Source: a virus. Taken from it: a stretch of DNA of 64,000 nucleotides. Shown here in pieces: positions 6,981-55,427 of the stretch; within the stretch, counting starts at the first letter, position 1; each line of letters opens with the position of its first letter. The stretch is taken from IMG/VR virus record IMGVR_UViG_3300047557_002984, positions 10,322-74,321 of that record. One strand, given 5' to 3'. Under the pieces are notes generated by a model. It ran no database searches. It was not told the DNA's origin and was given only the letters and a program-made list of their open reading frames with translations. A program made the translations under genes and the position numbers.

Positions 6981-7199
6981 CTACCTATTGACCACCTCGC
7001 GCCCCGGCACGTTCAGCGCCAGGCTTACCACCCGGTATTCCGGCGTGCGAAACTGTTCGTGCGCGGGCCGGTGCAGCGATTGCAGCCTGACGACCTCGTT
7101 ACGCGCCAAATCCGCATCGTTCCACGCGCTCAGCACGGCAAGCGGCTGGTGCGGGTTGCCCCAATCTTCCACGGTTAGCCAGATGATGCGGTTTGCCAT
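6981..7199 (-). CDS. hypothetical protein
   Basis: Stop/start coupled to upstream neighbour. Confidence 0.6.
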   Translation of the reverse strand: MANRIIWLTVEDWGNPHQPLAVLSAWNDADLARNEVVRLQSLHRPAHEQFRTPEYRVVSLALNVPGREVVNR

Positions 7200-10150: not shown

Positions 10151-10357
10151 TTAATTGTCTGCTGCGCGTTCGAGCGATTCAAGCCGCGCAGCTTCCTGCA
10201 ATAATTCGGATAATTGCTGCTCTGCTGCCCCAAGCGTGCGGCGGATGGAGTCAATCAGACGGCGCTGCTTGGCTGCTGACGCACGAATAACATCCGGCGT
10301 GATGTCTTGCCGGGAAATCCCTGCCAGCGACTTTACTAGCTTCGCTTGTTGAGCCAT
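10151..10357 (-). CDS. small coiled-coil leader protein
   Basis: Follows TATAAT near 10382-10387 and AGGTG RBS; precedes the terminator. Confidence 0.6.
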   Translation of the reverse strand: MAQQAKLVKSLAGISRQDITPDVIRASAAKQRRLIDSIRRTLGAAEQQLSELLQEAARLESLERAADN

Positions 10358-10481
10358 ACACCTATTCGGGGCACCGTGTACATTATAGCCCAGCCTGTTA
10401 TTTTTTGTGCAAGAAATATTTAGAACAGTGAGTGGACGCTGGAGCAGAGCGAAAACTTTTTTCGTGTTTTAATAATTTTAC

Positions 10482-10512
10482 ACTTGCACTTTTGCAAGTG
10501 TTGCGATACTAT
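10482..10512 (+). promoter_or_regulatory. sigma70-type promoter P1 with palindromic operator
   Basis: TTGCAC-N17-TACTAT; ACTTGCA-CTTT-TGCAAGT inverted repeat over the -35. Confidence 0.8.
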
Positions 10513-10561
10513 CTGCCTGTCGGTTGGCAATCACGCCAACGACGAACCAAGGAGGTTTCTT

Positions 10562-10777: not shown

Positions 10778-10834
10778 CCAGCGCAATCTAACCACCGTCC
10801 GCGAGCCTGCCCCGCTCGCCTTAATGGAGAGATC

Positions 10835-11038: not shown

Positions 11039-11082
11039 GAACCCGCTCGCCTTCTTTTTTTTCTCGTTTTTAATGATTTCCC

Positions 11083-11113
11083 ACTTGCACTTTTACAAGT
11101 AGAGTGGTACTAT
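11083..11113 (+). promoter_or_regulatory. promoter P2 (copy of P1)
   Basis: TTGCAC-N17-TACTAT; ACTTG-N8-CAAGT; followed by CTGCCTGTCGGT as in P1. Confidence 0.8.
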
Positions 11114-11160
11114 CTGCCTGTCGGTGAGGGAAACGACAACTTTTAACAAGGAGCACGACA

Positions 11161-11408: not shown

Positions 11409-11594
11409 ATGCGTTACGACTTCATTCTTACGCGCGACAACACAAAAGACGGTGATCAATGGTTTGGCGAGGTCTACGCCCAACCACAGCAAGATGATGA
11501 TGACGCTGTTCACACTACCGGATTTTGCGCCACATGGATGGACGCGCAAGCTGACTGCAACCAGTGGATTAAAAATCAAGAGGCAACGCAATGA
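11409..11594 (+). CDS. small acidic early protein
   Basis: GAGGAG RBS; MRYDFIL...QQDDDDAV. Confidence 0.7.
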   Translation: MRYDFILTRDNTKDGDQWFGEVYAQPQQDDDDAVHTTGFCATWMDAQADCNQWIKNQEATQ

Positions 11595-15340: not shown

Positions 15341-15458
15341 CGCACATTATACCAAAAACTACCGAAAATAGAGCAAGAAAAAGGCCACCCGTAACGAGCG
15401 CACCACTCCCGCTCCAACGATTCACCGCTCTTTTTTTTTTCGTGTTTAATAATTTTCC

Positions 15459-15489
15459 ACTTGCATTTTTACAAGTAAAAGGCTATTAT
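15459..15489 (+). promoter_or_regulatory. promoter P3 (copy of P1/P2)
   Basis: TTGCAT-N17-TATTAT; ACTTG-N8-CAAGT; CTGCCTGTCGGTGAGG. Confidence 0.8.
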
Positions 15490-15541
15490 CTGCCTGTCGG
15501 TGAGGACAACGAAACAACAACCGCTAACAAGGAGCACGACA

Positions 15542-28023: not shown

Positions 28024-29034
28024 TTAAGCCACCAGCCCTTGTTGTTTTGCCTTCTGGTAATTTTCCATCGTCCAGCGGCGCTGCTCGCCAAGGCTCATTT
28101 GCTCCCAATTCGCTGGTTTGGGCGGCATCGGGATCACAACGGCCCCTTCCGGCACAGGAAAGCATCCGCCGATACGTGTCGGGGGTTGAGGTTGGCCAGC
28201 AAGCGAGACGTGGAACAGGTCTTTAAACGCCCACGGGCTAAGCGCCTTCGTCGGGTAGCGGGCAGCCAGCCACGAAGGAAAGGCCCGCACGTCGGCGGCT
28301 GTTGCCTTCAGCGAGAGCGCAAATTCCGCGAGTTCGCGCATCGTGCTAAAGTTCGTTGCGTGGCCAGGAAAAACATCCTCCAACGCTGTGCCCAACTCTC
28401 CGTGCGGGGCAGCCGTAGGCGGGGGGCTGGTTTTCCCCCTGGTTTTCCCCCTGGTTTTCTTCTGGTTTTCTTCTGGTTTTTGTGTGTCTGTTGAACAGAC
28501 CACCTCCGGTCTGTTGGACTGACTACCTCCGGTCTGTTGAACAGACCATCTCTGGTCTGTTGGACTGACTACCCCTGGTCTGTTCAACAGACTACCCCTG
28601 GTCTGTTCAACAGACTGGCTCTGGCGGGCAGATTCTGTTTGCCGGATGGCTCTCTCGGCTTTTTGTCCGGCGCGCGCTTGCAGGATGTCCAGGCGGACAT
28701 TGTTGGAGTCCATTTCCAATTCGTAGCACGCCCCGTCGTTGGATAGGTTGTTCTCGTCCGCCTTGACCAGCAAGCCGACCTCGACCAAATACGCCAACCC
28801 GTGAATGACGGTTGAGCGCCCCAAGCCCGTGCCGTGGTCGCGGATTTCGCCATTGGCCCCGCGTGCGCCGTTGCAGAACTGCGACAGGCTGATGCGATCC
28901 CGCTGCTTATGAAAGCCCATAATGCGACGCACGGCATACAGCAACAGAGCTAGCTCCGTGCCGGTCAGCAAGTGCATAACCTCATCCACGTAGAAATTCG
29001 GCACCTGAAACGTATTCGGATGAATCTTTGACAA
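28024..29034 (-). CDS. replication initiator (lambda O-like N-terminal domain)
   Basis: FQVPN..VD..M..LTGTE..LL...RRIMGFHK..DRISLSQF; contains iterons; AGGAG before TTG 29034. Confidence 0.88.
   Translation of the reverse strand: MSKIHPNTFQVPNFYVDEVMHLLTGTELALLLYAVRRIMGFHKQRDRISLSQFCNGARGANGEIRDHGTGLGRSTVIHGLAYLVEVGLLVKADENNLSNDGACYELEMDSNNVRLDILQARAGQKAERAIRQTESARQSQSVEQTRGSLLNRPGVVSPTDQRWSVQQTGGSQSNRPEVVCSTDTQKPEENQKKTRGKTRGKTSPPPTAAPHGELGTALEDVFPGHATNFSTMRELAEFALSLKATAADVRAFPSWLAARYPTKALSPWAFKDLFHVSLAGQPQPPTRIGGCFPVPEGAVVIPMPPKPANWEQMSLGEQRRWTMENYQKAKQQGLVA
28427..28615. repeat. replication origin: six iterons plus CTGGTTTT repeats
   Basis: GTCTGTTSRACWGAC at 28486, 28509, 28532, 28555, 28578, 28601 (23-bp period); five CTGGTTTT units at 28427-28480. 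Confidence 0.85.
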
Positions 29035-36730: not shown

Positions 36731-37089
36731 GCATTGTTTTGAACCCAACAGATCACCCGGCGGGCACGGAGTTCATCCATGCAAGGGAAGGCCAGATGGT
36801 TAGCGACGCAATTACGCGCTGGTCAGAGGGCGGACGGCTGCAAATCAGATCAAAAGGGTCGCTCTATTGGTTTTTTCCCGCAGGTGTGGAAGTGCTGGAA
36901 ATCCTGCCCCCATCGCCAACGCCAAGCACGTCAGTGGACTTCGCGGAGCTTGTTGATGCGTGCCGGTCGCTGGACGCGGAGCTTCTCGACGAGTACGACA
37001 GCGAGGCGGTCAACGCGGCGCTCCATCGCATCCGCGCCATTGTGGGCAGATGCGTCAAGATGCCCCAGGAAGGTGGCACCAATGAGTAA
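36727..37089 (+). CDS. hypothetical protein
   Basis: GGAGG RBS, ATGA overlap. Confidence 0.65.
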   Translation: MSIVLNPTDHPAGTEFIHAREGQMVSDAITRWSEGGRLQIRSKGSLYWFFPAGVEVLEILPPSPTPSTSVDFAELVDACRSLDAELLDEYDSEAVNAALHRIRAIVGRCVKMPQEGGTNE

Positions 37090-37477
37090 GGAAAAAGACT
37101 TGCTCGCGGAAATCGAGCTCCAAGAGGCAGTAATCGCGGAGGCAACCGAGCGCCTGGAAGCGCTGCGCGTGGAGGTTTACGCATTGCAACTTGTAGCCCG
37201 TCACAACAAGAAGCCAACGGCTGCGATGTTGGACGTGCTGGCCAAACTCGCGGCGGGCGATGCTGTGTGTCGTTTCGTTGGCACTCGGAACTGGAAGTCG
37301 TATTACAGGCTTCTTAGTACAGATGATCGCGTACCAACGTCCGCTATAGACGGACTGAGAGAGCGCGAATGTATCCAATGGCGAACCGAAGAGCGCGCCA
37401 GCCAAGTCGCCCGCATCACAGACCACGGGCGCGCAGTGCTTGCCAAGCACCAGAAAGGTGGCGGCGATGCCCAATGA
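37082..37477 (+). CDS. hypothetical protein (wHTH-like C-terminus)
   Basis: L.ERE.I...ARITDHGRAVL. Confidence 0.65.
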   Translation: MSKEKDLLAEIELQEAVIAEATERLEALRVEVYALQLVARHNKKPTAAMLDVLAKLAAGDAVCRFVGTRNWKSYYRLLSTDDRVPTSAIDGLRERECIQWRTEERASQVARITDHGRAVLAKHQKGGGDAQ

Positions 37478-39584: not shown

Positions 39585-39992
39585 ATGAGCGAGCAAGTAA
39601 AGCAAGTAACGGAACGCCCCGCATATGGGCGTCCAATTCAGGAAATCGTTGCAGATTTGGCGGCTGAAATTCCAGCCAAGATGCTGGCAACCAAGACTCT
39701 CAAAGGCAAAGAGATCACCTATCTTCCGTGGTATCGCGCCGCGCGAATGCTGGATTACTACGCGCCTGGATGGCAGTACGAAATCCGCGACATTAAGCCT
39801 GTTGGTGCGCAATGCGTGATCATCGTTCGCCTTTCCATTCCGGCAGCGGAAGGAACTTTTTACCGTGAAGCCACGGGGATCGAAGAAGAGAATGTTTCAG
39901 GATACGGCGACCCGACATCTAACGCCGAATCAATGGCGTTGCGCCGTGCCGCTGCGAAGTTCGGCTTAGGCCGTTACCTGTACGAGAAATAA
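39585..39992 (+). CDS. Rad52/Rad22 (Sak-like) single-strand annealing protein
   Basis: ITYLPW, APGW, REATG, YGDPTSNAESMALRRAAAKFGLGRYLY; next to ssb. Confidence 0.88.
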   Translation: MSEQVKQVTERPAYGRPIQEIVADLAAEIPAKMLATKTLKGKEITYLPWYRAARMLDYYAPGWQYEIRDIKPVGAQCVIIVRLSIPAAEGTFYREATGIEEENVSGYGDPTSNAESMALRRAAAKFGLGRYLYEK

Positions 39993-40001
39993 GGAGGAAC
40001 C

Positions 40002-40460
40002 ATGGCTTCATTCAACAAGATCGTAATTGTGGGCTATCTGGGCCGCGATCCTGAAATCCGCTACACGCCGCAAGGGATGGCGGTTTGCAGCTTCAGCATT
40101 GCGACCACCGAACGCCGGAAAGATAAGTCTGGCGAGTTTCAGGATCAGACAACGTGGTTTCGCGTTACGTGTTGGGGGAAACAGGCAGAGTTCGTCAATG
40201 AACGCCTGCAAAAAGGCAATCAGGTGTACGTGGAAGGCCGGTTGACGCAATCGGAATACACGGACAAGGACGGCAACACCCGCACATCACTAGAGGTCAA
40301 TGCCTCCGACGTGCAACTGCTGGAACGCGCGCAGAAGGCCGATGACGAAGGCCAACCGAACGCCCGGAACGCGGCAGCAATGACCGCGCAGCGACCGGCG
40401 CAAGCGGCACGGCCAACAGGCAAATTCAGCGGAGCGGATGAGAGTGATATCCCGTTCTGA
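40002..40460 (+). CDS. ssb: single-stranded DNA-binding protein
   Basis: NKIVIVGYLGRDPE, TTWFRV, KG.QVYVEGRL, DIPF tail. Confidence 0.96.
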   Translation: MASFNKIVIVGYLGRDPEIRYTPQGMAVCSFSIATTERRKDKSGEFQDQTTWFRVTCWGKQAEFVNERLQKGNQVYVEGRLTQSEYTDKDGNTRTSLEVNASDVQLLERAQKADDEGQPNARNAAAMTAQRPAQAARPTGKFSGADESDIPF

Positions 40461-40522: not shown

Positions 40523-40759
40523 ATGCCACAGCCCACGCTAACTGACGCCATCAATGCCGTGCTTGCCATTGCGCAACGCGAAAGCCCGCGCGCACGGATC
40601 ATCTTGCACCAACTAGCGGCGGCACTGAACAACCCCGCCCGCTTGTCTGCGCTGGCCAGCCTGTGCGCCAACGCGAGCGCAGTGCAGGTGCAGATTGGCG
40701 AGGTCAATGCGGCGGAAACCGGAGACGATTGGCCGACGGGAAAACATTGGAGCGCGTAA
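40523..40759 (+). CDS. hypothetical protein
   Basis: GGAG RBS. Confidence 0.6.
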   Translation: MPQPTLTDAINAVLAIAQRESPRARIILHQLAAALNNPARLSALASLCANASAVQVQIGEVNAAETGDDWPTGKHWSA

Positions 40760-41052
40760 TGGACACCTTAGACACCGCCGCCAACCTTGCCGCCGTGGAA
40801 CGCGCCGTTGCGGGCGTGCGCTGGCATCAAGACGATTCGCCCTTGGAATACATCAAAGCGAAGGGCGGCAAAATCATGATGTTCAAGGTAGGGCTAGCGG
40901 CGGATGAGTATGTTGACAAGTACCGCTGCCGGATGGCGGTGGTGTGGCCAGATAATCGAGGCGCGGCGCAGACATACGGCGACACTGTGCAAGATGCGGT
41001 TATGGTCGCCTTGATTAAACTGGCAATCTTTCACGGATGGAGATCCGACTAA
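40759..41052 (+). CDS. hypothetical protein
   Basis: TAATG coupling. Confidence 0.6.
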   Translation: MDTLDTAANLAAVERAVAGVRWHQDDSPLEYIKAKGGKIMMFKVGLAADEYVDKYRCRMAVVWPDNRGAAQTYGDTVQDAVMVALIKLAIFHGWRSD

Positions 41053-41155
41053 TGCGCCGCCTGACATTCGCCATTCTATTCGCGCTCGCCTTACTGCTGG
41101 CCAGCTACGGCGGCTGCCAGTTTGGCGCGCACGTCGCAACGGAAAGGGAAGAACG

Positions 41156-41578
41156 ATGACCAACGAAACACGCGAGCGAGATATTTACTTGGCAAAGGCG
41201 ATGGGCTGGCGGTACGTGCCGCCGGGGCCGGAGACGGCAGAAATGTATGGTGAGGGCGTCCACTGCCTGCGCGATCCTGAGGGGCGATTCTGGCCCTGGC
41301 CGTCGCCTTGGGCGAAAACTGAGGATGAGACGTGGACGCACTTAGCCCCTGATTTTCACGAATGGGAAAGCGCGAAGGCGAAGCTGCTCCGCTGGTTGGC
41401 GGCGGATGAGGCGCGGTTCGAGGCGTTCTATAACGAGATAGACGCGGTCTACGACGAAACTGACTGCGAGAACCAATTTAGCGTTGTAAGTTGGTCGCGC
41501 TTCCTGCTCACGCTAACCCCGGCGCAGGTCGCAGAGGCAGCGGAGAAGGCGCTGCGAGGGATGGAGGGAAAAAGCTAA
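41156..41578 (+). CDS. ABA-sandwich-like hypothetical protein
   Basis: DIYLAKAMGW...PDF...TPAQVAEAA. Confidence 0.65.
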   Translation: MTNETRERDIYLAKAMGWRYVPPGPETAEMYGEGVHCLRDPEGRFWPWPSPWAKTEDETWTHLAPDFHEWESAKAKLLRWLAADEARFEAFYNEIDAVYDETDCENQFSVVSWSRFLLTLTPAQVAEAAEKALRGMEGKS

Positions 41579-42201: not shown

Positions 42202-42450
42202 ATGATTACCAGCAAAGTCATCAGTGCATCATTGAGCGAAGGCGACAGGGTAATTCTTGGCCACGTTAAACGAGTCACCGACGGCCTCGCTTTTCCTGTT
42301 GATTGCTCGCACTGCAAGGATGCCGGAACAGAGAACCCCGTCATTGACTCAATCACGGAACTGGGCGGCATTGATTTGAATACGAATTTACCTATTTGTC
42401 AGGGCTGCGCCGAAGCCGAGGCCGACGAAGCCGAGTATATTCACTGGTAG
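42202..42450 (+). CDS. zinc-binding hypothetical protein
   Basis: CSHC...CQGC; AAGGAGG RBS. Confidence 0.65.
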   Translation: MITSKVISASLSEGDRVILGHVKRVTDGLAFPVDCSHCKDAGTENPVIDSITELGGIDLNTNLPICQGCAEAEADEAEYIHW

Positions 42451-42452
42451 TT

Positions 42453-43346
42453 ATGAAAAACCAAGCCCTTGCCATAGTTCAATTGCCTGCGCTCGCACAG
42501 CGCTTTACGTCTGCCACGTCTGATGACGATCTGGTAGATAGCTGGATACGCGTTAAAGGCTCAAGAAGCACGCACACGCGCGACGCCTACGGAAAGATCG
42601 CTGCTGATTTCCTAACGTTTGCTGGCTGCCCGCTGTCACAGGTCACAATTGATCGGCTGCAAGATTACGCGGACTCGTTAAAGGAATATTCCGCCGCGAC
42701 GCAACGCCAGCGCATCTTTGCCGTCAAGAGCTTGCTGAGCTATGGGCAAAAAACCGGCTATTTGCAATTCAACGTTGGCGCGGCACTGCAAGCGCCCGCC
42801 GCGAAAAATGAACTGGCGCAGCGCTTCCTGAGCGAAACAGACATCTTCAAGTTGATCGAGTCCGAGACAAATACGCGAAATCGTTTGTTGCTTCGATTGC
42901 TGTACGTGAGCGGCGCGCGCATTAGCGAGGCGCTGGCGCTGCGCTGGTCTGATCTGACGCCGCGCGAAAACGGCGGACAGGTGACGATCTTTGGCAAAGG
43001 CAGCAAAACCCGGCAAGTCTTAATTCCGGGTAAGTTGTGGGATGACCTGCAATTGGTGCGCGGGGAAGACGACGCGCCGGTGTTTACGTCGCCACGTTCA
43101 GACGGCAAGCCGTTGTGCCGCAAGTCTGGCTGGTACATCGTCAAGCAAGCGGTCAAGCGTGCCGGGATTAACTGGAAGGCATCTTGCCAGTGGTTGCGGC
43201 ACGCACACGCGACGCACGCATTAAAGCGCCACGCGGACATTAAGCTTGTCAGCGCGACGCTGGGGCATTCAAACGTTTCGGTTACAAACGTCTACTTAGA
43301 CGCGCAACCGGGCGAAAGCTCGTCAACATTTTTAATGGGAGTGTAA
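42453..43346 (+). CDS. tyrosine recombinase (XerC/D-like, no arm-binding domain)
   Basis: SGARISE, GKGSK.R, QWLRHAHAT, LGHS...T..Y. Confidence 0.92.
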   Translation: MKNQALAIVQLPALAQRFTSATSDDDLVDSWIRVKGSRSTHTRDAYGKIAADFLTFAGCPLSQVTIDRLQDYADSLKEYSAATQRQRIFAVKSLLSYGQKTGYLQFNVGAALQAPAAKNELAQRFLSETDIFKLIESETNTRNRLLLRLLYVSGARISEALALRWSDLTPRENGGQVTIFGKGSKTRQVLIPGKLWDDLQLVRGEDDAPVFTSPRSDGKPLCRKSGWYIVKQAVKRAGINWKASCQWLRHAHATHALKRHADIKLVSATLGHSNVSVTNVYLDAQPGESSSTFLMGV

Positions 43347-48079: not shown

Positions 48080-51067
48080 TCAATTACAAAGATATACGCG
48101 CCAGCGCGTTGAAGTTGTGTCATAGCGAGCGATGGCACATTTGCCCGCCGTTAAAGTCAAATCAGCACCCGTGGACGTGGTAAACCGATTCGCGGCAGTA
48201 CTGCTTGCGTTTTCGTTTTGCAAGACAATGTCGTTGCTTCCGACGTTCCAGATTTCCATGATCTGGCCATCTATGTTGCCCTGTGACATTCCCGTCACAT
48301 TGCGCGACGCATCGCTTGACCATCGCTGAAACCAACCAGTACCAGGAGCATAGTTGTTTCGATCAGCAGTAATCTGCGCAGGAGTACGCGCAGGGGTAGA
48401 GAACGTAGCAGGCGTGGTGCCTGAACCATTTCCCGCAAGTTGCAGAATGTTCACACCGCCACGCCGCAGCCAGTTGTCTTGGGAAAGATTGTCAATTCCT
48501 AGCTGGCTCAAACTGAAACCGTTTGAATTGACTATGCCGCGTTGCGTGCCGCTAGTAACAATGCCCAAGACTCCCGCGCCTATTGAGTAAATGCCGTCAG
48601 TTGCGGAACCAATTGCTAACGCAGGAGCGCCTGCGGCTCCCGCTTGCGTGATAAAGACCTGCCCGGCAGTACCAGTACCGATTCCCGCGCCGCCCGTTAG
48701 AACAATATTGCCGCCATTCGCATTTCCGCTTGTATTTCGCGCGGCTGCCCCACTGGTGATCGTAATGGCCCCGCCTGCGGCTGCACCTGTATTACTACCA
48801 GCCGTGGCGGCGCTTGCTGTAAGGTTGAACGGCGTTCCGGCTGTCGCGTTTGTAGCAGCAGCAGGAGCATTTGCGGTCAAACTGACAGCGTTTCCAGCAG
48901 TGTTGTTAGCAATGGTGATGTACTGCGTCGCGCTCGTTGTCGGCGAAAAGGCAAGCATTGGGTTGCCGTTTGCGTCGTCTAACTCCGTGGTGATGCGCGG
49001 TGATGTGGCGCGCAAATTACCTGATCCAGCGGTGACATTCGTACCATCAGATGTAAAGCCGGAAATTTCGCCATAGACGCCCGCGTTATTGTAAGGGATA
49101 CGGGTATTGGTGCCGCTGGTAATCGTTGTGGTGCCCACGGTGATGCCGCCACCGCCACCACCGCAGCCCGTGCAACTGGTCACGGTCAGCGCGCCCGCCA
49201 CGTCCAGCTTGGCAACCGTTGTGCCCGCCGCATTCTGAAAATCAAAGTAATTGCCGGTGGGTGATGTATCCGTATTCCGCTTGATCAACAGGCCCGTGAT
49301 GTTGTTCGCGCCCAGCGTGGCCGAAATCTGCCCGCCGCTGGTTGGTGCCGCTACACCAAGGCCGAGATTACCAAACCGCGTGTTGCTCGTGGTGGCGATG
49401 TCCTGCGGCAAGCTCAATGTGACCGCGCCAGTGGCTGCGCTGGCCGTGACCTGGTTCGCGGTGCCCGTGATCGAATTGACCACGTTCGTTAAACTCGCTC
49501 CGCTCCCCGTGGGCGCAAGGTAATCCGTGCCTGCTACCGCCGATGAGAATCCGCCGCTCCCGTTGCCCTTCAGGATTGCGCTGCCGGAAGTCGCGGGCGC
49601 ATAATCCGTGCCGCTCACAGCCGCGCTCACGGTGCCGCTACCGTTGGCTTTCAGGATGCCGTTGACCGTACCCGCGCCGCCATAGCTTGAACCAATCACC
49701 GCGCCATTCCATGTGCCCGTGGTGATCGTGCCCAGCGTCGTGATTGTGTTTTGGCCTGTGTAGGTGCTGGCAATCGTGAGCGTTGGATTGCCGCTTACGC
49801 CATCGCCATTCGTGACCGTGATCTTATCTGTCGTGCCCGTGATGGTGCGCGCCGCGCCTGTGCCCGCGCCTGTGCGCGCCCAAAGGCCGCTTGTCGAGTT
49901 CCCAGCGAGCGCGGTCAGATCGGAATCCAGGTCTTGCTTGTTGCCAAGCTGCGTCTGGATGGCCGACGTGACGCCTGACACATAGCCCAATTCAGTGGAC
50001 GTGACCGAGGACGCCGTAAGCACGCCTGACGCATCTGTAACCGCCGCGCGTGACGCCGTGAGCGCCGCCAGCTTGGAAAGCGCAATCGCCGCAGATGCGG
50101 ATAGCTCGGTATTCGTAATGCCGGACAGGCGCGCCAGTGGGAGCGTGCCGCTGCTCAGGTCTGACGCGCTGCGTGTGGTAATGTCCCCAAGGCTGGATGT
50201 CGTCTTATCAATCTGCGCCCAAGTGTAATCATTCGTGGCCGCAACGACTGCGCCGGTTCGCCCGAATACGGACGAAACCGCACCCCCACCGCCGCCCGTG
50301 CCGTTCGCCTTGGCCGTCACGCGCCCATAGGCATCAATCGTCAAATCGCAATTCGTACAGGTTCCCGCGCTCACGCCGGATGTCGCCAAATCTAACGCGC
50401 CGCTGGCAAAGTCGAACCGCGCGGAGGGCGTAATGTTTTCCGGTGCGCCCGTGCTAGCCGTGGTGCGCCCTAAGAGCACGCCAGAGCTAAGCGTCAGCCC
50501 GCTGGTCGTGATCGCGCCCGGCGCAACGTAATCCGTCCCCGCAGATGCTGTGGCCGGTGTGGATGTGCCGCTGCTAACCGTGTGCTTGAGCAGGCCGCTG
50601 GTCAGTGAGCCCAGGCTGAACTCCGCGCTCAGGCCAGATTCCGCCGTGCGCGTGATGAAGGTGGCGCTCGATGGCGCGTACCCGGTCGCGGTCAGCGTGC
50701 GCAGTGCGTCCGCCTCGCTTAGTAATTCGTGCAGATTGGCCGTGCTGCTGGCGGGAATGTAGAGGCGAATGCCGGAGCGGAAATCGTACCGCCCCAGGAT
50801 CATATTAGCCCGGATTGTAGTGATAGATCGCTGCGGTACGGTGAAAGAAACAGCACCCGTGCTAGCGTCAGATGTTACCGTCTGAGCTACTGTCTGAATA
50901 ACTGCGCCATCAACTTCAACTTGCACAATCTGAAGCGTGCAAGAGGTGCAAGGCACGTTCGTGGTTTTCAGGAGAACGCCTGACACTGTGCAGGAGCTAA
51001 CCGTTTGTGCGCGAGCGGATAAGGTGAGCAGCGCGAAAAGCGCGAGTAGAAAAGAAAGGCGACGCAT
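48080..51067 (-). CDS. fibre/adhesin-like Gly/Thr/Ser/Ala-rich protein with Sec signal peptide
   Basis: MRRLSFLLALFALLTLSARA-Q; fibre modules VSSVFGRTGAV, KQDLDSDLTALAG, ITVTNGDGVSGNPT, AGTDY repeats. Confidence 0.8.
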   Translation of the reverse strand: MRRLSFLLALFALLTLSARAQTVSSCTVSGVLLKTTNVPCTSCTLQIVQVEVDGAVIQTVAQTVTSDASTGAVSFTVPQRSITTIRANMILGRYDFRSGIRLYIPASSTANLHELLSEADALRTLTATGYAPSSATFITRTAESGLSAEFSLGSLTSGLLKHTVSSGTSTPATASAGTDYVAPGAITTSGLTLSSGVLLGRTTASTGAPENITPSARFDFASGALDLATSGVSAGTCTNCDLTIDAYGRVTAKANGTGGGGGAVSSVFGRTGAVVAATNDYTWAQIDKTTSSLGDITTRSASDLSSGTLPLARLSGITNTELSASAAIALSKLAALTASRAAVTDASGVLTASSVTSTELGYVSGVTSAIQTQLGNKQDLDSDLTALAGNSTSGLWARTGAGTGAARTITGTTDKITVTNGDGVSGNPTLTIASTYTGQNTITTLGTITTGTWNGAVIGSSYGGAGTVNGILKANGSGTVSAAVSGTDYAPATSGSAILKGNGSGGFSSAVAGTDYLAPTGSGASLTNVVNSITGTANQVTASAATGAVTLSLPQDIATTSNTRFGNLGLGVAAPTSGGQISATLGANNITGLLIKRNTDTSPTGNYFDFQNAAGTTVAKLDVAGALTVTSCTGCGGGGGGITVGTTTITSGTNTRIPYNNAGVYGEISGFTSDGTNVTAGSGNLRATSPRITTELDDANGNPMLAFSPTTSATQYITIANNTAGNAVSLTANAPAAATNATAGTPFNLTASAATAGSNTGAAAGGAITITSGAAARNTSGNANGGNIVLTGGAGIGTGTAGQVFITQAGAAGAPALAIGSATDGIYSIGAGVLGIVTSGTQRGIVNSNGFSLSQLGIDNLSQDNWLRRGGVNILQLAGNGSGTTPATFSTPARTPAQITADRNNYAPGTGWFQRWSSDASRNVTGMSQGNIDGQIMEIWNVGSNDIVLQNENASSTAANRFTTSTGADLTLTAGKCAIARYDTTSTRWRVYLCN

Positions 51068-51152
51068 CCCGGAATCCTCGAAATTCCAGGATGAACGCTG
51101 TGGCTCAGCGTGCGGAGTATAACAAAAAATCACAGGAATGGTGATTTTTCTC

Positions 51153-51182
51153 TTGCGGAACTAGGCGCGCTTGCGGTACTAT
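51153..51182 (+). promoter_or_regulatory. promoter P4 with tandem direct repeat
   Basis: TTGCGG-N18-TACTAT; CTTGCGGWACTA twice at 18-bp period; leader resembles that of P1. Confidence 0.7.
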
Positions 51183-51230
51183 GCGCTTGTCAGTTGGCAA
51201 GCACGCCAGCGACGAACCGGAGGAAAAGTA

Positions 51231-51509
51231 ATGGCCAGCTTTTGCACTTACTGTCAAAAAGATTTCACCGAAGGCGAGAAACCTGTGCGCGCCAATCGGG
51301 GCGCACTAGGAAAATGGGCGCACGCTGGTTGTAAGCCTGTCAGCGGCAGTCATACGGCGGCTGGTTGGCGCGTCGCAGTCAGCGAATCCACAAACCGCAA
51401 CGTTCCCGTCGGTCTCACCAAGCAGTTCGTGAATGAGTGCAAAGCGCGCGCGTATGCGGCTGGCCTTGAAGCCTTTGGCGGTGTTACATGTACCGTCTCG
51501 GAAATTTAA
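51231..51509 (+). CDS. small zinc-binding early protein
   Basis: GGAGG RBS; CTYC...HAGC. Confidence 0.7.
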   Translation: MASFCTYCQKDFTEGEKPVRANRGALGKWAHAGCKPVSGSHTAAGWRVAVSESTNRNVPVGLTKQFVNECKARAYAAGLEAFGGVTCTVSEI

Positions 51510-51552
51510 TCACCCCCCGCGAGCCTGCCCCGCTCGCTCACAGGAGCACGAC

Positions 51553-51891
51553 ATGACCAACAAGCAACTGAAAGACATCATTGAAATGACGAGCTACGAA
51601 ACCCGCTCCTACAGCGGGCGCGGCATGTATGGCAAAGAATGCCTCGCCTTCACTGCCGACGCTGGGACATCGAGCTTCGTCGTCGCGGCGGATTTGATGG
51701 AAGCGGCACTTTACGCGGGCGAAGATTTCATTGAGTCAGTTTTGGCAGCAATGCGGGGCATCCGAACGGACAGCCTGGGACGTGGCACGGTGTTCTACTT
51801 TCCAGGCGTGCCCGCTGACGGGCTTCGCTTTGAGGAAGCGGAAGACGAAGGCGACGCACCGGGCGAAGGCAACCCGGCACAGTGGCGGTAA
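51553..51891 (+). CDS. conserved acidic phage protein
   Basis: RSYSGRGMYGKECL...DSLGRG..YFP. Confidence 0.8.
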   Translation: MTNKQLKDIIEMTSYETRSYSGRGMYGKECLAFTADAGTSSFVVAADLMEAALYAGEDFIESVLAAMRGIRTDSLGRGTVFYFPGVPADGLRFEEAEDEGDAPGEGNPAQWR

Positions 51892-51902
51892 GGAGGGGCG
51901 CT

Positions 51903-52289
51903 ATGACCGAGCAACAAACCAAGGAGCTTTTCAATATCCACATCGTCACGAACGACGCCCGCACCATCTTTGCCAGCGGTCGCGACTTCTTGGAAGCGTT
52001 CGAGAAAGGCGCAACCATCGAAGGCGCATTTCTGGTCACAGCGTACTGGTTTCACCGTGAAATTCCTGCATGGATCGCCGCGCTTGACCAGCTTTACGTT
52101 GAGTACGAGTTTCACCATGGCCAGCGTGTTGACCTCGCCATCAAGTATCTGCGCGCACAGGGCGTGCAATGCCCAGAGTTCACCGATTACCTGCTGCGCC
52201 AGTCTCGTTACGGGACTGCGCCAGCGGGGAGCGTCAGCGATGTGGTATTAGGAGCGTTCCACCGCTCGCTGGATTGGAGCAATGAATGA
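51903..52289 (+). CDS. hypothetical protein
   Basis: AAGGAGG RBS. Confidence 0.7.
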   Translation: MTEQQTKELFNIHIVTNDARTIFASGRDFLEAFEKGATIEGAFLVTAYWFHREIPAWIAALDQLYVEYEFHHGQRVDLAIKYLRAQGVQCPEFTDYLLRQSRYGTAPAGSVSDVVLGAFHRSLDWSNE

Positions 52290-52543
52290 CAGATCAAGGC
52301 TTAATTGGCAAAACTGTCTATTGGGTAAGCGTTGGCCACATCTCGCGCGGTGTGGTCAGGGATAGCCGTGAGGTTATCTGGCCTAACGACACGCTCACGA
52401 TTGAGCATGTGGACGGATACAAGCAAACTATCGGCGCGTCACGCGTCCACTGCGATCCGCTTGATGCCGCCAGAGAAGCGCGGGAATGCGCGGAGGCGCT
52501 GCTGGATGCAGCGAATCAGTTGGAAAAGGAGGCAAGCGAATGA
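52286..52543 (+). CDS. cassette gene 1
   Basis: Ends EASE within the junction repeat. Confidence 0.7.
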   Translation: MTDQGLIGKTVYWVSVGHISRGVVRDSREVIWPNDTLTIEHVDGYKQTIGASRVHCDPLDAAREARECAEALLDAANQLEKEASE

Positions 52544-52920
52544 ACCCAGACCACAACGCCCTAAACCACTTTCTTGCAGCAGCAATGGGCGAGGATGAAT
52601 TTCTGCCGCGATGCTTCGCGGAACGCCACGCCATCAACGGCGATGGCGATTGTTTGGATTGCGGCATTGACGCGCACGAATCGCCGCAAGTGCCGCCGGA
52701 TTATGCCGGGAATCAAGCGGAAAGCAGACGCTTGCTGGCGTGGATCAACCGGCAATACGGCGGGGTAAGGTTGCGGTTTATGAAACACTTATGCGACCTG
52801 TGCGAATTGCACGCCCCGCTATCGCTCTTAGAGGTGCTAACGCTGATGGCTGAAGTGCCACTGCTCGCGATTGCGCAGGCAGCGGAGTTGACGATTAAAG
52901 AGAAGGAGGCAAGCAAATGA
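52540..52920 (+). CDS. cassette gene 2 (ABA-sandwich-like with Cys insert)
   Basis: ALNHFLAAAMG...PPDYAGN; starts MN, ends EASK. Confidence 0.7.
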   Translation: MNPDHNALNHFLAAAMGEDEFLPRCFAERHAINGDGDCLDCGIDAHESPQVPPDYAGNQAESRRLLAWINRQYGGVRLRFMKHLCDLCELHAPLSLLEVLTLMAEVPLLAIAQAAELTIKEKEASK

Positions 52921-53111
52921 ACCTGATTAAGCTTATCAAGCAATGCTTATGCGATCACAACTGGATCGCGCGAATTAAGGAAAGCAAAGAGAAATGGCAA
53001 CCCGATACGCACTGGCGCGTAATCGCCGCTGAGTATCGCTGCCCAAAATGCGGGAAAACGCGCCCAATGGACGAAGAAGAGGCGCAACTACTCGCGGAGG
53101 CAAGCAAATGA
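52917..53111 (+). CDS. cassette gene 3 (zinc ribbon)
   Basis: CDHNW...CPKCGK. Confidence 0.7.
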   Translation: MNLIKLIKQCLCDHNWIARIKESKEKWQPDTHWRVIAAEYRCPKCGKTRPMDEEEAQLLAEASK

Positions 53112-53479
53112 ACGAATTTACCCAAGAAGAAAAAGCCAAACTGCCCAAGTGGGCGCTGCAAAAGATTGAAATGCTTGAATCTGAACGCCAGGCCGCAGTC
53201 ACAGCGCTGCGACGGTACACTGACGAGCAAACGGGAAGCCCGTTCCGCGTGACTGAATTAGAGTGCATCGGCGAACAAGTCGGGCCGACATTCATCACGC
53301 GATACATTCAAGCCTACAAAATGGAAATCGCTTGGAAGGGCGTAGAGCTTACTGTTATCACTAAGGATGATGGCATCTTCCTATCTTGGGTGGCAGAAAA
53401 TCAGAGCGTGCGCAATTTCGTAGGCTTAGTGCCCCTCGCGTTCCAACAGGCCACATTGCGCGCGGAGGCAAGCGAATGA
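53108..53479 (+). CDS. cassette gene 4
   Basis: KLPKWA motif; starts MN, ends EASE. Confidence 0.72.
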   Translation: MNEFTQEEKAKLPKWALQKIEMLESERQAAVTALRRYTDEQTGSPFRVTELECIGEQVGPTFITRYIQAYKMEIAWKGVELTVITKDDGIFLSWVAENQSVRNFVGLVPLAFQQATLRAEASE

Positions 53480-53742
53480 ACCAATGGCAACCAATGAGCA
53501 CTGCGCCGAAGGACGGCACGAAAATTCTAGGCTGGCGGAAGGATTGCGGCGTTCTCTTGATTCGTTGGGATTGTGCCGCATCGTTCCTAACCGCTGACGA
53601 ACGGCGGCATATGGACGAAGATTACCTATCCGCGATGGATTGGTTTTGCGCCGATTTCATCACCGGCGCGCGTCTTGAGGGCGTAGACGTGCTAACGCAT
53701 TGGATGCCGCTACCGGAGCCACCACAGGAGGCAAGCGAATGA
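53476..53742 (+). CDS. cassette gene 5, DUF551 family
   Basis: WQPMSTAPKDGT...THWMPLPEPP. Confidence 0.85.
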   Translation: MNQWQPMSTAPKDGTKILGWRKDCGVLLIRWDCAASFLTADERRHMDEDYLSAMDWFCADFITGARLEGVDVLTHWMPLPEPPQEASE

Positions 53743-53924
53743 ACCCAGAATCCGCTTACGAGTGCGTCGCGTGTCCCAACGTCTTTGGAGACTTCGAGGA
53801 AGCTGCCCACTGCTGCGGGTATGGCTACTATGACGTGTTCCTGTGCGGCGAGTGCGGCACAAGCTATTTCACCGAATATGAGGCAGAGGCGTGCTGCCAG
53901 GAGGAAGAAGATGATTCGCTTTGA
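53739..53924 (+). CDS. cassette gene 6, acidic double Cys-finger
   Basis: Two CxxC-x12-CC units. Confidence 0.65.
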   Translation: MNPESAYECVACPNVFGDFEEAAHCCGYGYYDVFLCGECGTSYFTEYEAEACCQEEEDDSL

Positions 53925-54096
53925 ATATGAATGCGCGGGCGAAGGCTGCGGCTTTGCGTCCGACGATATGCAAGAGGCGCTGGATCACTGCAATGCGGGC
54001 GCGGACACACTTTACATCTGCGCAAATTGCGGTAAACGGCACGGATGGGAAATCAATGCGCAAGCGTGCTGCCAAGAGGGAGAAAACGAACAATGA
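53911..54096 (+). CDS. acidic double Cys-finger paralogue
   Basis: YECAGEGC...HC, CANCG...ACCQE. Confidence 0.6.
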   Translation: MIRFEYECAGEGCGFASDDMQEALDHCNAGADTLYICANCGKRHGWEINAQACCQEGENEQ

Positions 54097-54359
54097 GCAC
54101 TAACCGGATTGCTATAAACTACTACGCGCGACTTGCTAGTGAGGCGCAAGAGGAACTCGCCCGGCTTCAGTCCGGCATTGCCGCGCTCCGCGAGCAGTGG
54201 CAAGCCCGGCAGAATGCGTGGCTGACTGAGTTTGACGAGGAAATGCAAAAGGCTGGACGCGCAGAACGTTCCCTTATTCTAGCCGGTCAGCGGTACGCGA
54301 TGGCTTGCGTCCTTGAGGAACTCGACGCGCTCTTTCCCGTGGAGGCGTCCCACCAATGA
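54093..54359 (+). CDS. coiled-coil hypothetical protein
   Basis: ATGA overlaps; ends EASHQ. Confidence 0.65.
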   Translation: MSTNRIAINYYARLASEAQEELARLQSGIAALREQWQARQNAWLTEFDEEMQKAGRAERSLILAGQRYAMACVLEELDALFPVEASHQ

Positions 54360-54667
54360 CCACCTTTATCACGGTGCCCGCCGCCGCGCAGCAGTCCGGG
54401 CTGAGCGAAAAGTACATCCGCAAGCTGTGCCACGATGGCACGCTCCGCGCATCGTGCGTACAGGAAGCGCGCGGCCCGGTCTGGCAGATCGAGCGCGCCT
54501 CGTGGGAAGCGTATCTTGCGGCGCGTGACGGCTGGCTTGGGGATGTGGCGAAGGTGCTGGCGGGCAAGGCTCACACGGCAGCAGAAATTACCACCGCGAT
54601 CCGGCACGCGCTAGACACGCACGGGCTGGAAGTGCGGCGGACGATACGGAAACCAAAGACGGGTTAA
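54356..54667 (+). CDS. HTH_17/MerR-like DNA-binding protein
   Basis: ITVPAAAQQSGLSEKYIRKLCHDGTLRA...WQI. Confidence 0.8.
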   Translation: MTTFITVPAAAQQSGLSEKYIRKLCHDGTLRASCVQEARGPVWQIERASWEAYLAARDGWLGDVAKVLAGKAHTAAEITTAIRHALDTHGLEVRRTIRKPKTG

Positions 54668-54677
54668 GGAAATAAAG

Positions 54678-55427
54678 CTACTCCCCGCCAGCAATCCACA
54701 GTGACGCCTCATTGCTGATGCGCCCATCGGCCCACACGCGCACGCGCAGCTTGCCGCATACGCCAGCAGGCAGCATAAAGGTGAGCGTGTGGTTGCCGGG
54801 CGCGATCAGGTTGCCGCGCGATACGGTTGCTGCAATCCAGCGGTCATCCAGTAATACCCAAACGTGGCGCGCATTGCGCCAGCCCGTGCCCCATAATTGC
54901 ACGCCGGTTTCGCCGATGTTGGCGGGTGGCTGGCAATTCGTCTTTAACTCTGGAGTGCAGAGAATGCGCGGCCAATAGCCATCCCAGGCAATGCCCTGCG
55001 CGCTTTCAAACTCCGTGAACAGTCCCGGCGATGTGTTGGCGATCACTGCCCAGCCACACCACGCCGCACCATCTGCGCGGGACACTTCCACACGCCGCCA
55101 GCCCCAATCCACAGCGGGCACAATCACCTGAATTTGCCGCGCGGAGAGATACCGCAGCCGCGCCGGTTCGCCACCGATCAGCACGCGCACGCCCGCCAGA
55201 GACGCGGGCGGGTTGGTGTAATTGCCCGCGATGCCTTCCCCGTCCGTGAAGCCTTCGCCTTCGATTACCGCAACGCAATCCGCCGCGAGCACGCCGGAAC
55301 CACTCGCAATGTTGCGGATTTGTAACGGTCGCGAGGCAGCATTGGCCGCCAATGTGGCGCACGCAGCAAACGCCAGCGCCAAAATAAAGAGCAGCATCCA
55401 GCCTGTGCGGCGCTGTACTTCGTTCAT
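54678..55427 (-). CDS. secreted protein, TIGR03437 (Solibacter C-terminal domain)-like
   Basis: Signal peptide; PASLAGVRVLIGG..ARL.YLS..QI...VP, SPGLFT, LWGTG.R, DG..SN. Confidence 0.7.
   Translation of the reverse strand: MNEVQRRTGWMLLFILALAFAACATLAANAASRPLQIRNIASGSGVLAADCVAVIEGEGFTDGEGIAGNYTNPPASLAGVRVLIGGEPARLRYLSARQIQVIVPAVDWGWRRVEVSRADGAAWCGWAVIANTSPGLFTEFESAQGIAWDGYWPRILCTPELKTNCQPPANIGETGVQLWGTGWRNARHVWVLLDDRWIAATVSRGNLIAPGNHTLTFMLPAGVCGKLRVRVWADGRISNEASLWIAGGE

Follow-up and report, generated by a model that had tools for sequence, protein, structure and literature searches.

An 18-nucleotide translational-coupling junction as a probable linker for single-gene exchange in a phage accessory operon

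Within a 64,000-nucleotide (nt) stretch of phage DNA (hereafter the window; positions 10,322 to 74,321 of record IMGVR_UViG_3300047557_002984, a 74.3-kb IMG/VR phage record of 57% GC), an operon of small genes contains five exact copies of an 18-mer, GGAGGCAAGCRAATGAAC, each of which forms the junction between two consecutive genes. It is probable that this 18-mer acts as a portable translational-coupling linker, and that homology-dependent recombination between its copies removes, restores or re-pairs whole genes without leaving a scar. As far as contig sequences can tell, the arrays of relatives show that the cassettes have been repeatedly re-associated at the repeat. The crossovers themselves would have taken place inside the repeat by short homology, and the Rad52-like annealase of the phage, together with its single-strand binding protein SSB, may have acted on them.

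The repeat and its position at gene junctions

The operon genes are designated g-1 to g9 (Table 1), and the five copies of the 18-mer, all on the + strand, occupy the junctions from g1|g2 to g5|g6. Every copy contains the last codons and the TGA stop of the upstream gene, a ribosome site (GGAGG) and the ATG-AAC with which the downstream gene starts, so that the upstream protein ends in EASE or EASK and the downstream protein begins with MN. Stop and start overlap as ATGA at all five copies, as they do at most other junctions of the operon, and in all five cases the Shine-Dalgarno sequence lies inside the upstream open reading frame (ORF), with GGAGG placed 7 nt before the ATG. This overlap architecture suggests that translation is coupled across the linker junctions. 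No similarity was found among the genes joined in this way, the only exception being the paralogue pair g6/g7 downstream. In the same manner, the flanks of the copies are unrelated and the edges of the repeat are sharp, except that copies 1 and 5 have 24 nt in common.

The number of copies by far exceeds the chance expectation, which is 0.15 copies, and none of 100 shuffled sequences contained five. No extra copy was found in the window with up to three mismatches allowed, the rest of the 74.3-kb record is without additional copies of the 18-mer, and neither an antisense copy nor a complement of it exists in the whole record. The 18-mer is asymmetric, and a search for inverted repeats around the copies revealed no recurrent inverted repeat or hairpin beside any of them. 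A promoter scan of positions 50900-54900 returned no promoter-like site, and a terminator scan returned none at the repeats. The allele present at position 11 of the repeat (A or G) showed no significant relation to the gene on its left or right, in four informative cases.

The conservation of the repeat extends beyond what ribosome binding requires. GGAGG sites are abundant in this genome, 37 of them lying ahead of ORFs of at least 40 codons, with differing spacers. Ten starts combine GGAGG with the 7-nt spacing; among these, the five copies agree with one another at 9-10 of the 10 spacer and second-codon positions, while all other pairs agree at 0-5. Since the other GGAGG starts of the genome have unrelated spacers and second codons, translation alone does not demand this particular spacer. 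The first-pass annotation had described five repeat copies at gene boundaries that join mutually unrelated genes and are conserved beyond the need of a ribosome-binding site, had asked for a chance expectation, and is upheld in all these respects. It had also listed two degenerate relatives of the repeat, of which the one at 54341 is real, yet belongs to a second linker type (see below), and the one at 11580 has four mismatches, does not lie at a gene-gene overlap and has no relation to the repeat that could be shown.

Conservation exceeding the Shine-Dalgarno core might also be expected if the spacer and the second codon formed a site for a phage or host factor, such as a translational repressor, an activator or a small RNA, that co-regulated the five genes, recombination then being a side effect. 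A bound factor has been suggested by the authors who described the start-associated sequences (SAS) of mycobacteriophages (PMC3203893). A small RNA of the phage itself would be difficult to reconcile with the lack of antisense or complementary copies in the record, and the operon proteins have no RNA-binding family among their family matches. We regard such a site as rather improbable from this analysis; it would in any case be compatible with the linker explanation.

Re-paired cassettes in relatives and sequencing runs

Metagenome contigs were scanned for the exact 18-mer, which gave more than 120 hits, and BLAST against the phage led to 11 relatives that are 77-100% identical to it in shared parts and fall into eight accession series by contig name. 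The window and these 11 relatives make up 12 arrays, which were curated gene by gene, with linker junctions counted at 0-2 mismatches. The 12 arrays contain 28 linker junctions, representing 20 distinct left>right gene pairings. Thus, g3 is followed by g4, x3, g5 or g6, and x5 is followed by g3, g4 or g5; conversely, g4 is preceded by g3, g1 or x5, and g6 is preceded by g5, g4, Z, w or a g3-X3 fusion. The novel pairings nearly always come with an intact linker. In spite of this variation, one master order fits all 12 arrays, namely g-1/x5/Z, g0, g1, g2 or X1, g3, g4 or x3-X3, g5, g6, g7 or x8, g8, g9. This collinearity is what equal and unequal crossovers between collinear genomes produce, unlike capture at one site.

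Two relatives are particularly informative. In L144, one and the same stretch of 18 nt forms the end of the block running up to window position 52545 and the start of the block from 53096 onwards, with g2 and g3 missing and one copy of the repeat kept; as the flanks are collinear, this contig has the structure of a clean repeat-to-repeat deletion product. The same g1|linker|g4 joint is found in L100. The second case is L125, which is 100% identical to window positions 52905-53113 over 209 nt, that is, over exactly linker, g3 and linker, while its other shared blocks are only 84-86% identical (Fisher p ~1e-12) and the genes that flank g3 in it (X1 and x3) bear no relation to g2 and g4. This pattern indicates a recent exchange of one cassette. 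Identity also shifts across a linker in L144, L146, L156 and L168, and L125 shares with L089 the arrangement g3|R|x3|R'|X3, where R stands for the repeat.

Similar joints were found in public sequencing data. Part or all of the window is present in 20 listed public runs from 12 studies, mostly freshwater, wastewater, sludge and bioreactor metagenomes, three of these runs being possible sources of the present DNA, and contigs from four runs (four studies) were compared over positions 50900-54900, uncovered parts not being counted as absence. The joint 52545>53115 (g1|linker|g4) occurs in three runs, and its combination with 52279>52526, which gives g0|linker|g4, in two. In three runs, the joint 52910>53475 leads from g2 to g5 via GGAGGC, eight other letters and ATGAAC. 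The joint 53733>54365, leading from g5 to g9 via the second linker type, is present in three runs as well as in L146. It had been proposed in the first-pass annotation that repeat-to-repeat exchange adds, drops and swaps whole genes while the coupling junction is kept, and the re-pairing seen in relatives and run contigs agrees with this. The relatives clearly do not carry the same genes in the same order, given the 20 pairings and the loss of genes in L144 and L100.

All of these relatives are metagenome contigs and two copies of the repeat have 24 nt in common, and so the variant arrangements might be explained as assembly chimeras formed at the repeat. This is extremely improbable. Assemblers typically use word sizes that exceed the length of the repeat (18-24 nt). 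Throughout their length, the variants are 3-22% divergent from the window, which marks them as separate lineages, and the same arrangements turn up again in independent projects (g1|R|g4 in L144, L100 and three runs; g3|R|x3|R'|X3 in L125 and L089; g5|g9 in L146 and three runs).

No close relative was found in IMG/VR, the 18-mer occurring there as 17 single hits unrelated to the phage; IMG/VR searches with g2, g4 and g9 gave no match, and those with g-1 and the primase retrieved distant phages only. A search of IMG/VR with the tail protein identified one relative, L023. The species genomes scanned for the 18-mer yielded 111 single hits, none of them related, and no host or prophage copy. With regard to genomic context, the arrays of L144, L100, L154 and L184 adjoin homologues of the window genes at 36779-37477, 40663-41052 or 41156-41578 (window 36740-37463 and 40556-41565) and not tail genes, while L125 has the same tail-fibre context as the window. 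Because the arrays of several relatives adjoin non-tail genes, the whole operon resides in at least two genomic contexts.

Breakpoints, junction words and the mechanism of exchange

The position of breakpoints was evaluated by aligning all arrays against each other, which gave 253 block ends after exclusion of contig-end cases. As a descriptive count, block ends not being independent events and contigs having been ascertained by the 18-mer, 88 of the 253 homology-block ends fall inside linker windows, which make up 5.4% of the array sequence. The distribution of left block ends has its maximum at the first base of the repeat, that of right block ends at the last base. Linkers have ~3.0 ends per junction versus 1.3 for other gene starts, although the latter also carry breakpoints at 3.3 times their sequence share.

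Many rearrangements are located outside the linker. L156 has an in-frame g3-X3 fusion gene (L156:790-1080) and L100 an in-frame g4-x8 fusion gene (L100:1371-1538). In L184, a ten-codon stub of g3 ending in TAG is joined to the last 40 codons of g9 (L184:1999-2205), and in L174 a 28-codon mini-ORF consists of the start of Z and a ..LRAEASE tail (L174:830-914). The fusions, the g3 stub and the Z mini-ORF are decay products. In addition, a g6/g7 hybrid (53854>54066) is found in run contigs as well as in L125 and L131, X1 and g3 have a common 30-nt tail, and some junctions have only GGAGGC in common with the linker. Since so many rearrangements fall outside the linker, microhomology or illegitimate events followed by selection must also act in these arrays.

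The family also uses other junction words. The second linker type, GGAGGCGTCCCACCAATGACC at the g8|g9 junction of the window, follows the pattern GGAGGC..CCCACCAATGA and encodes the protein tail EA[S/A]HQ. It reappears at X3|g5 in L125 and at g5|g9 in L146 and in run contigs, and some junctions in relatives look like hybrids of both linker types. Homologues of g4, which form 14 clusters, end in EASE, EASK, EVIK, ETIK, EEASK or ..LR, and these tails point to further junction words in the family. Three g4 homologues (P0004, P0005 and P0012) have the tail AEVIK or AETIK and not AEASE/K; by back-translation from the protein tails only, such tails would be compatible with a junction of the GGAGGTGATCAAATGA type, fully complementary to the anti-Shine-Dalgarno sequence.

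These observations bear on the possibility that the repeat is only a strong signal for translation initiation and coupling, and that the shuffling reflects random illegitimate recombination with selection for intact genes, the 18-mer simply travelling along. The canonical GGAGG, the 7-nt spacing, the ATGA overlap and the A-rich second codon would all suit such a signal, and so would the rearrangements outside the repeat, the second linker type and other junction types (EVIK, ETIK and ..LR tails), and the enrichment of breakpoints at other gene starts. Nevertheless, neither the spacers nor the second codons of the other GGAGG starts in this genome are related to those of the linker, and the linker spacer adds no pairing with the usual 16S tail (as read from sequence; the tail of the host itself may differ). 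Moreover, random joins would not regenerate the intact linker with which novel pairings nearly always come, and the ends of the homology blocks match the edges of the repeat to the base. A pure translation signal is thus an unlikely explanation of the arrays.

The preferred explanation, in which the linker is the place of exchange, would work as follows. The linker is the only sequence common to otherwise unrelated neighbouring genes, and hence it would provide the homology for a crossover; wherever in its 18 nt a crossover fell, neither of the two reading frames would be broken, and the stop/start overlap as well as the ribosome site would be retained. The rearrangements outside the linker show that any short homology can serve for recombination in this region; among these homologies, the linker is the longest one between unrelated neighbours and the one whose use leaves every gene intact. 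A cassette gained by recombination in linkers would end up between two linkers, and because a gained cassette gets a linker on both sides, the multiplicity of linkers would need no selection for evolvability. Recombination within linkers would also spread and homogenise them automatically.

Likely routes include single-strand annealing or strand exchange by the Rad52-like protein and SSB, replication slippage and host recombination during co-infection. The first-pass annotation had correctly noted a Rad52-family annealase, whose gene is adjoined by that of SSB, and the phage also encodes an exonuclease. It has been established that Rad52-like phage recombinases drive relaxed recombination and mosaicism (PMC3945230), which makes the annealase, in combination with SSB, a plausible catalyst; slippage or functions of the host could equally well be responsible.

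The first-pass annotation had also offered a second driver, the phage tyrosine recombinase, and had called the array integron-like, which would make the 18-mer the core site of a site-specific system. The phage does encode such a recombinase, and the cassettes lack promoters of their own, a single leader upstream serving all of them. However, the asymmetric 18-mer shows no inverted repeat or hairpin at any copy, the order of genes is collinear in 12 of 12 arrays and not capture-ordered, and the family has hybrid junctions between linker types as well as crossovers in coding sequence, outside the repeat. The recombinase itself, located 9 kb away, has the appearance of an ordinary phage integrase. 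Consequently, we judge this enzyme an unlikely driver, and consider an integron-like mechanism very improbable.

Several points weigh against the linker explanation itself. The evidence consists of contigs, and no recombination event has been seen directly. A tract of 18 nt is short for efficient recombination, ~30 bp being the minimum quoted for Red-beta, and exchange rates may therefore be low. The relatives were found via the exact 18-mer, which inflates the apparent conservation of the linker; linker copies in relatives that were not ascertained in this way differ at 11 of 180 positions. Identical arrangements across data sets may stem from one inherited event. Finally, the many rearrangements outside the linker (fusions, the g3^g9 remnant, g6/g7 hybrids and junctions that have only GGAGGC in common with the linker) must be counted here as well.

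Genomic setting, known systems and generality

The array belongs to a single + strand operon at ~51.2-54.7 kb, flanked by minus-strand tail genes and composed of typical small phage accessory genes (Table 1). In the IMG/VR relative L023, whose adjoining tail protein is 49% identical, one 91-codon opposite-strand gene occupies the site, and there is no array. Between the gene of a 256-aa (amino acid) secreted-type protein and the tail-fibre gene, the window (51134-54677) carries ~12 opposite-strand genes against the one of L023 (L023:12943-13378), and because of this difference the site represents a variable insertion point inside the tail module. The g6 and g7 proteins share 36% identity, and relatives (L125:4078-4257 and L131:1052-1156) have one hybrid gene that begins like g6 and ends like g7, which fits either an unequal crossover of the paralogues or a duplication that took place in the lineage of the window. 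Repeated leader- or promoter-like segments and a GCGAGC...GCTCGC hairpin segment are common to several small-gene operons of the window, the present one among them (10452-10535, 11053-11136 and 15429-15512; 10494-10554 and 51172-51224; 10785-10819 and 51503-51537), and the leader of the present operon also lies beside the arrays of L184 and L174. Elsewhere in the window, six tandem 23-nt units (GTCTGTTGAACAGACCACCTCCG-like; 28486-28623), just upstream of the primase/helicase block, look like the iterons of a putative replication origin.

Table 1. Operon genes, linkers and recombination genes of the phage, in window coordinates (aa, amino acids)
Feature	Position	Strand	Remarks
Rad52/Rad22-family single-strand annealing protein	39585..39992	+	PF04098, 30.1 bits against a cut-off of 20.3; Erf-like phrog; candidate catalyst
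SSB	40002..40460	+	adjoins annealase
Tyrosine integrase	42396..43346	+	matches general phage integrase families; 9 kb from array; unlikely driver
Leader/promoter-proximal segment of operon	51172..51224	+	second occurrence at 10494-10554; adjoins arrays in relatives
g-1	51553..51891	+	112 aa; first conserved operon gene; in most relatives
g0	51903..52289	+	128 aa, no family
g1	52286..52543	+	85 aa; tail LEKEASE
Linker copy 1 (GGAGGCAAGCGAATGAAC)	52528..52545	+	junction g1|g2
g2	52540..52920	+	126 aa; cassette not present in L144, in L100 or in several of the run contigs
Linker copy 2 (A allele, position 11)	52905..52922	+	junction g2|g3; left edge of block 100% identical to L125
g3	52917..53111	+	64 aa, zinc-ribbon-like; 100% identical in L125 despite different neighbours
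Linker copy 3 (A allele)	53096..53113	+	junction g3|g4; right edge of 100% block; fused with copy 1 in L144
g4	53108..53479	+	123 aa, weak DUF7239 match
Linker copy 4	53464..53481	+	junction g4|g5
g5	53476..53742	+	88 aa, DUF551
Linker copy 5	53727..53744	+	junction g5|g6
g6 and g7	53739..54096	+	tandem Cys-rich paralogues, phrog_32948
g8 (88 aa) and g9 (103 aa, HTH_17-like)	54093..54667	+	operon end
Second linker type (GGAGGCGTCCCACCAATGACC)	54341..54361	+	junction g8|g9

The first-pass annotation had pointed to promoter-early stem-loop (PeSL) cassettes and SAS as precedents, and both comparisons are apt, the first by functional and the second by positional likeness. The closest known system in function is PeSL shuffling and the closest in position is SAS, and the array belongs to neither. 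The PeSL cassettes of T4-type phages (Arbiol et al. 2010, PMC2839356; also PMC4122927) resemble the present array in that copies of a short regulatory motif separate small non-essential ORFs of a variable region, and in that the breakpoints of indels and replacements between close relatives fall in the motif, which represents a 'linker' of modular evolution. In the PeSL system some crossovers have been located to the interval from the Shine-Dalgarno sequence to the -10 box. However, the PeSL element is an intergenic sigma-70 early promoter with a terminator hairpin, making its cassettes transcriptionally autonomous, whereas here the 18 nt lie inside overlapping coding sequence without promoter or hairpin, so that translational and not transcriptional context is kept. 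Excised mini-circles have been shown for PeSL, while the linker array is known from contigs alone.

SAS were described in Cluster K mycobacteriophages (Pope et al. 2011, PMC3203893). Like the 18-mer, SAS is an asymmetric repeat in one orientation, with a Shine-Dalgarno core 3-7 bp before starts and conservation beyond 16S pairing, and it lies ahead of genes from different families, sometimes spanning the upstream stop. Unlike the 18-mer, SAS is a 13-bp sequence, GGGATAGGAGCCC, present in 11-19 copies across the non-structural half of the genome, and about half of its copies are accompanied by a 17-bp extended inverted-repeat element, none of which is found here. No role in gene shuffling is reported for SAS in the passages of PMC3203893 considered here, whereas the five copies studied here are clustered, include the start and the second codon and come with comparative evidence of exchange.

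Integron cassettes are likewise promoterless single genes in a row, served by one upstream promoter and variable in content between relatives. The present array differs from them in having no attC hairpins at the copies and no IntI/attI/Pc platform beside it (the only tyrosine recombinase, judged by its general family matches, being 9 kb away), and in showing no capture-order insertion; its order is collinear and the exchange looks homology-driven. Deletion between short direct repeats, by slipped mispairing or single-strand annealing, is known from T7, T4 and bacterial studies. Deletions of the L144/L100 type conform to it, with two repeats in the long form and one in the short form, but here the repeats are functional junctions, so that the operons produced are intact, and besides loss there are cases of replacement and gain. 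The modular theory of phage evolution, with its linker or boundary sequences, is said to go back to Susskind and Botstein in 1978. In agreement with such linkers, short conserved sequences let homologous recombination reassort modules among co-infecting relatives; unlike classical modular theory, which concerns large functional modules with few clear sequence examples, the present array has single small genes as its units and a linker known at base resolution. The linkers of modular theory are discussed in PMC2839356.

To assess generality, 2.18 Mb of other loci were screened for 15-mers that combine a Shine-Dalgarno sequence with a start and are present at least three times, the window serving as positive control. 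One comparable case emerged, in the unrelated high-GC phage L318 (IMGVR_UViG_3300037458_000547). There, GGAGGTGCCGAAGTGA occurs three times at consecutive gene junctions (L318:9127-9692), with EVPK tails and a GTGA stop/start overlap; two of the three exact copies have a 27-nt extended repeat in common, and degenerate copies are located at 7054 and ~9865. This layout is analogous to that of the linker array of the window, but uses another word. An IMG/VR scan with the L318 linker detected no relatives of L318.

How phages gain and lose small ORFan genes without harming the neighbours is a long-standing question, to which there are two standard answers, conserved linkers on one side and random joins with selection on the other, and linker examples at the level of sequence are rare. 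The present array offers a base-resolved natural case, in which the translational-coupling junction doubles as the linker and the results are preserved in dozens of variants from the environment. Common C-terminal tails together with a fixed junction word provide an annotation signature for such arrays, and the junction is a possible design for scarless, frame-safe assembly of operons. A more far-reaching proposal, which we hold to be doubtful, is that the linkers constitute an evolved, recombinase-independent cassette system of general occurrence, each lineage having its own linker word, in which linker-to-linker exchange would yield single-gene circles or fragments that re-enter any linker of a co-infecting relative. 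If this were true, such arrays would be the translation-level counterpart of integrons for phage accessory operons.

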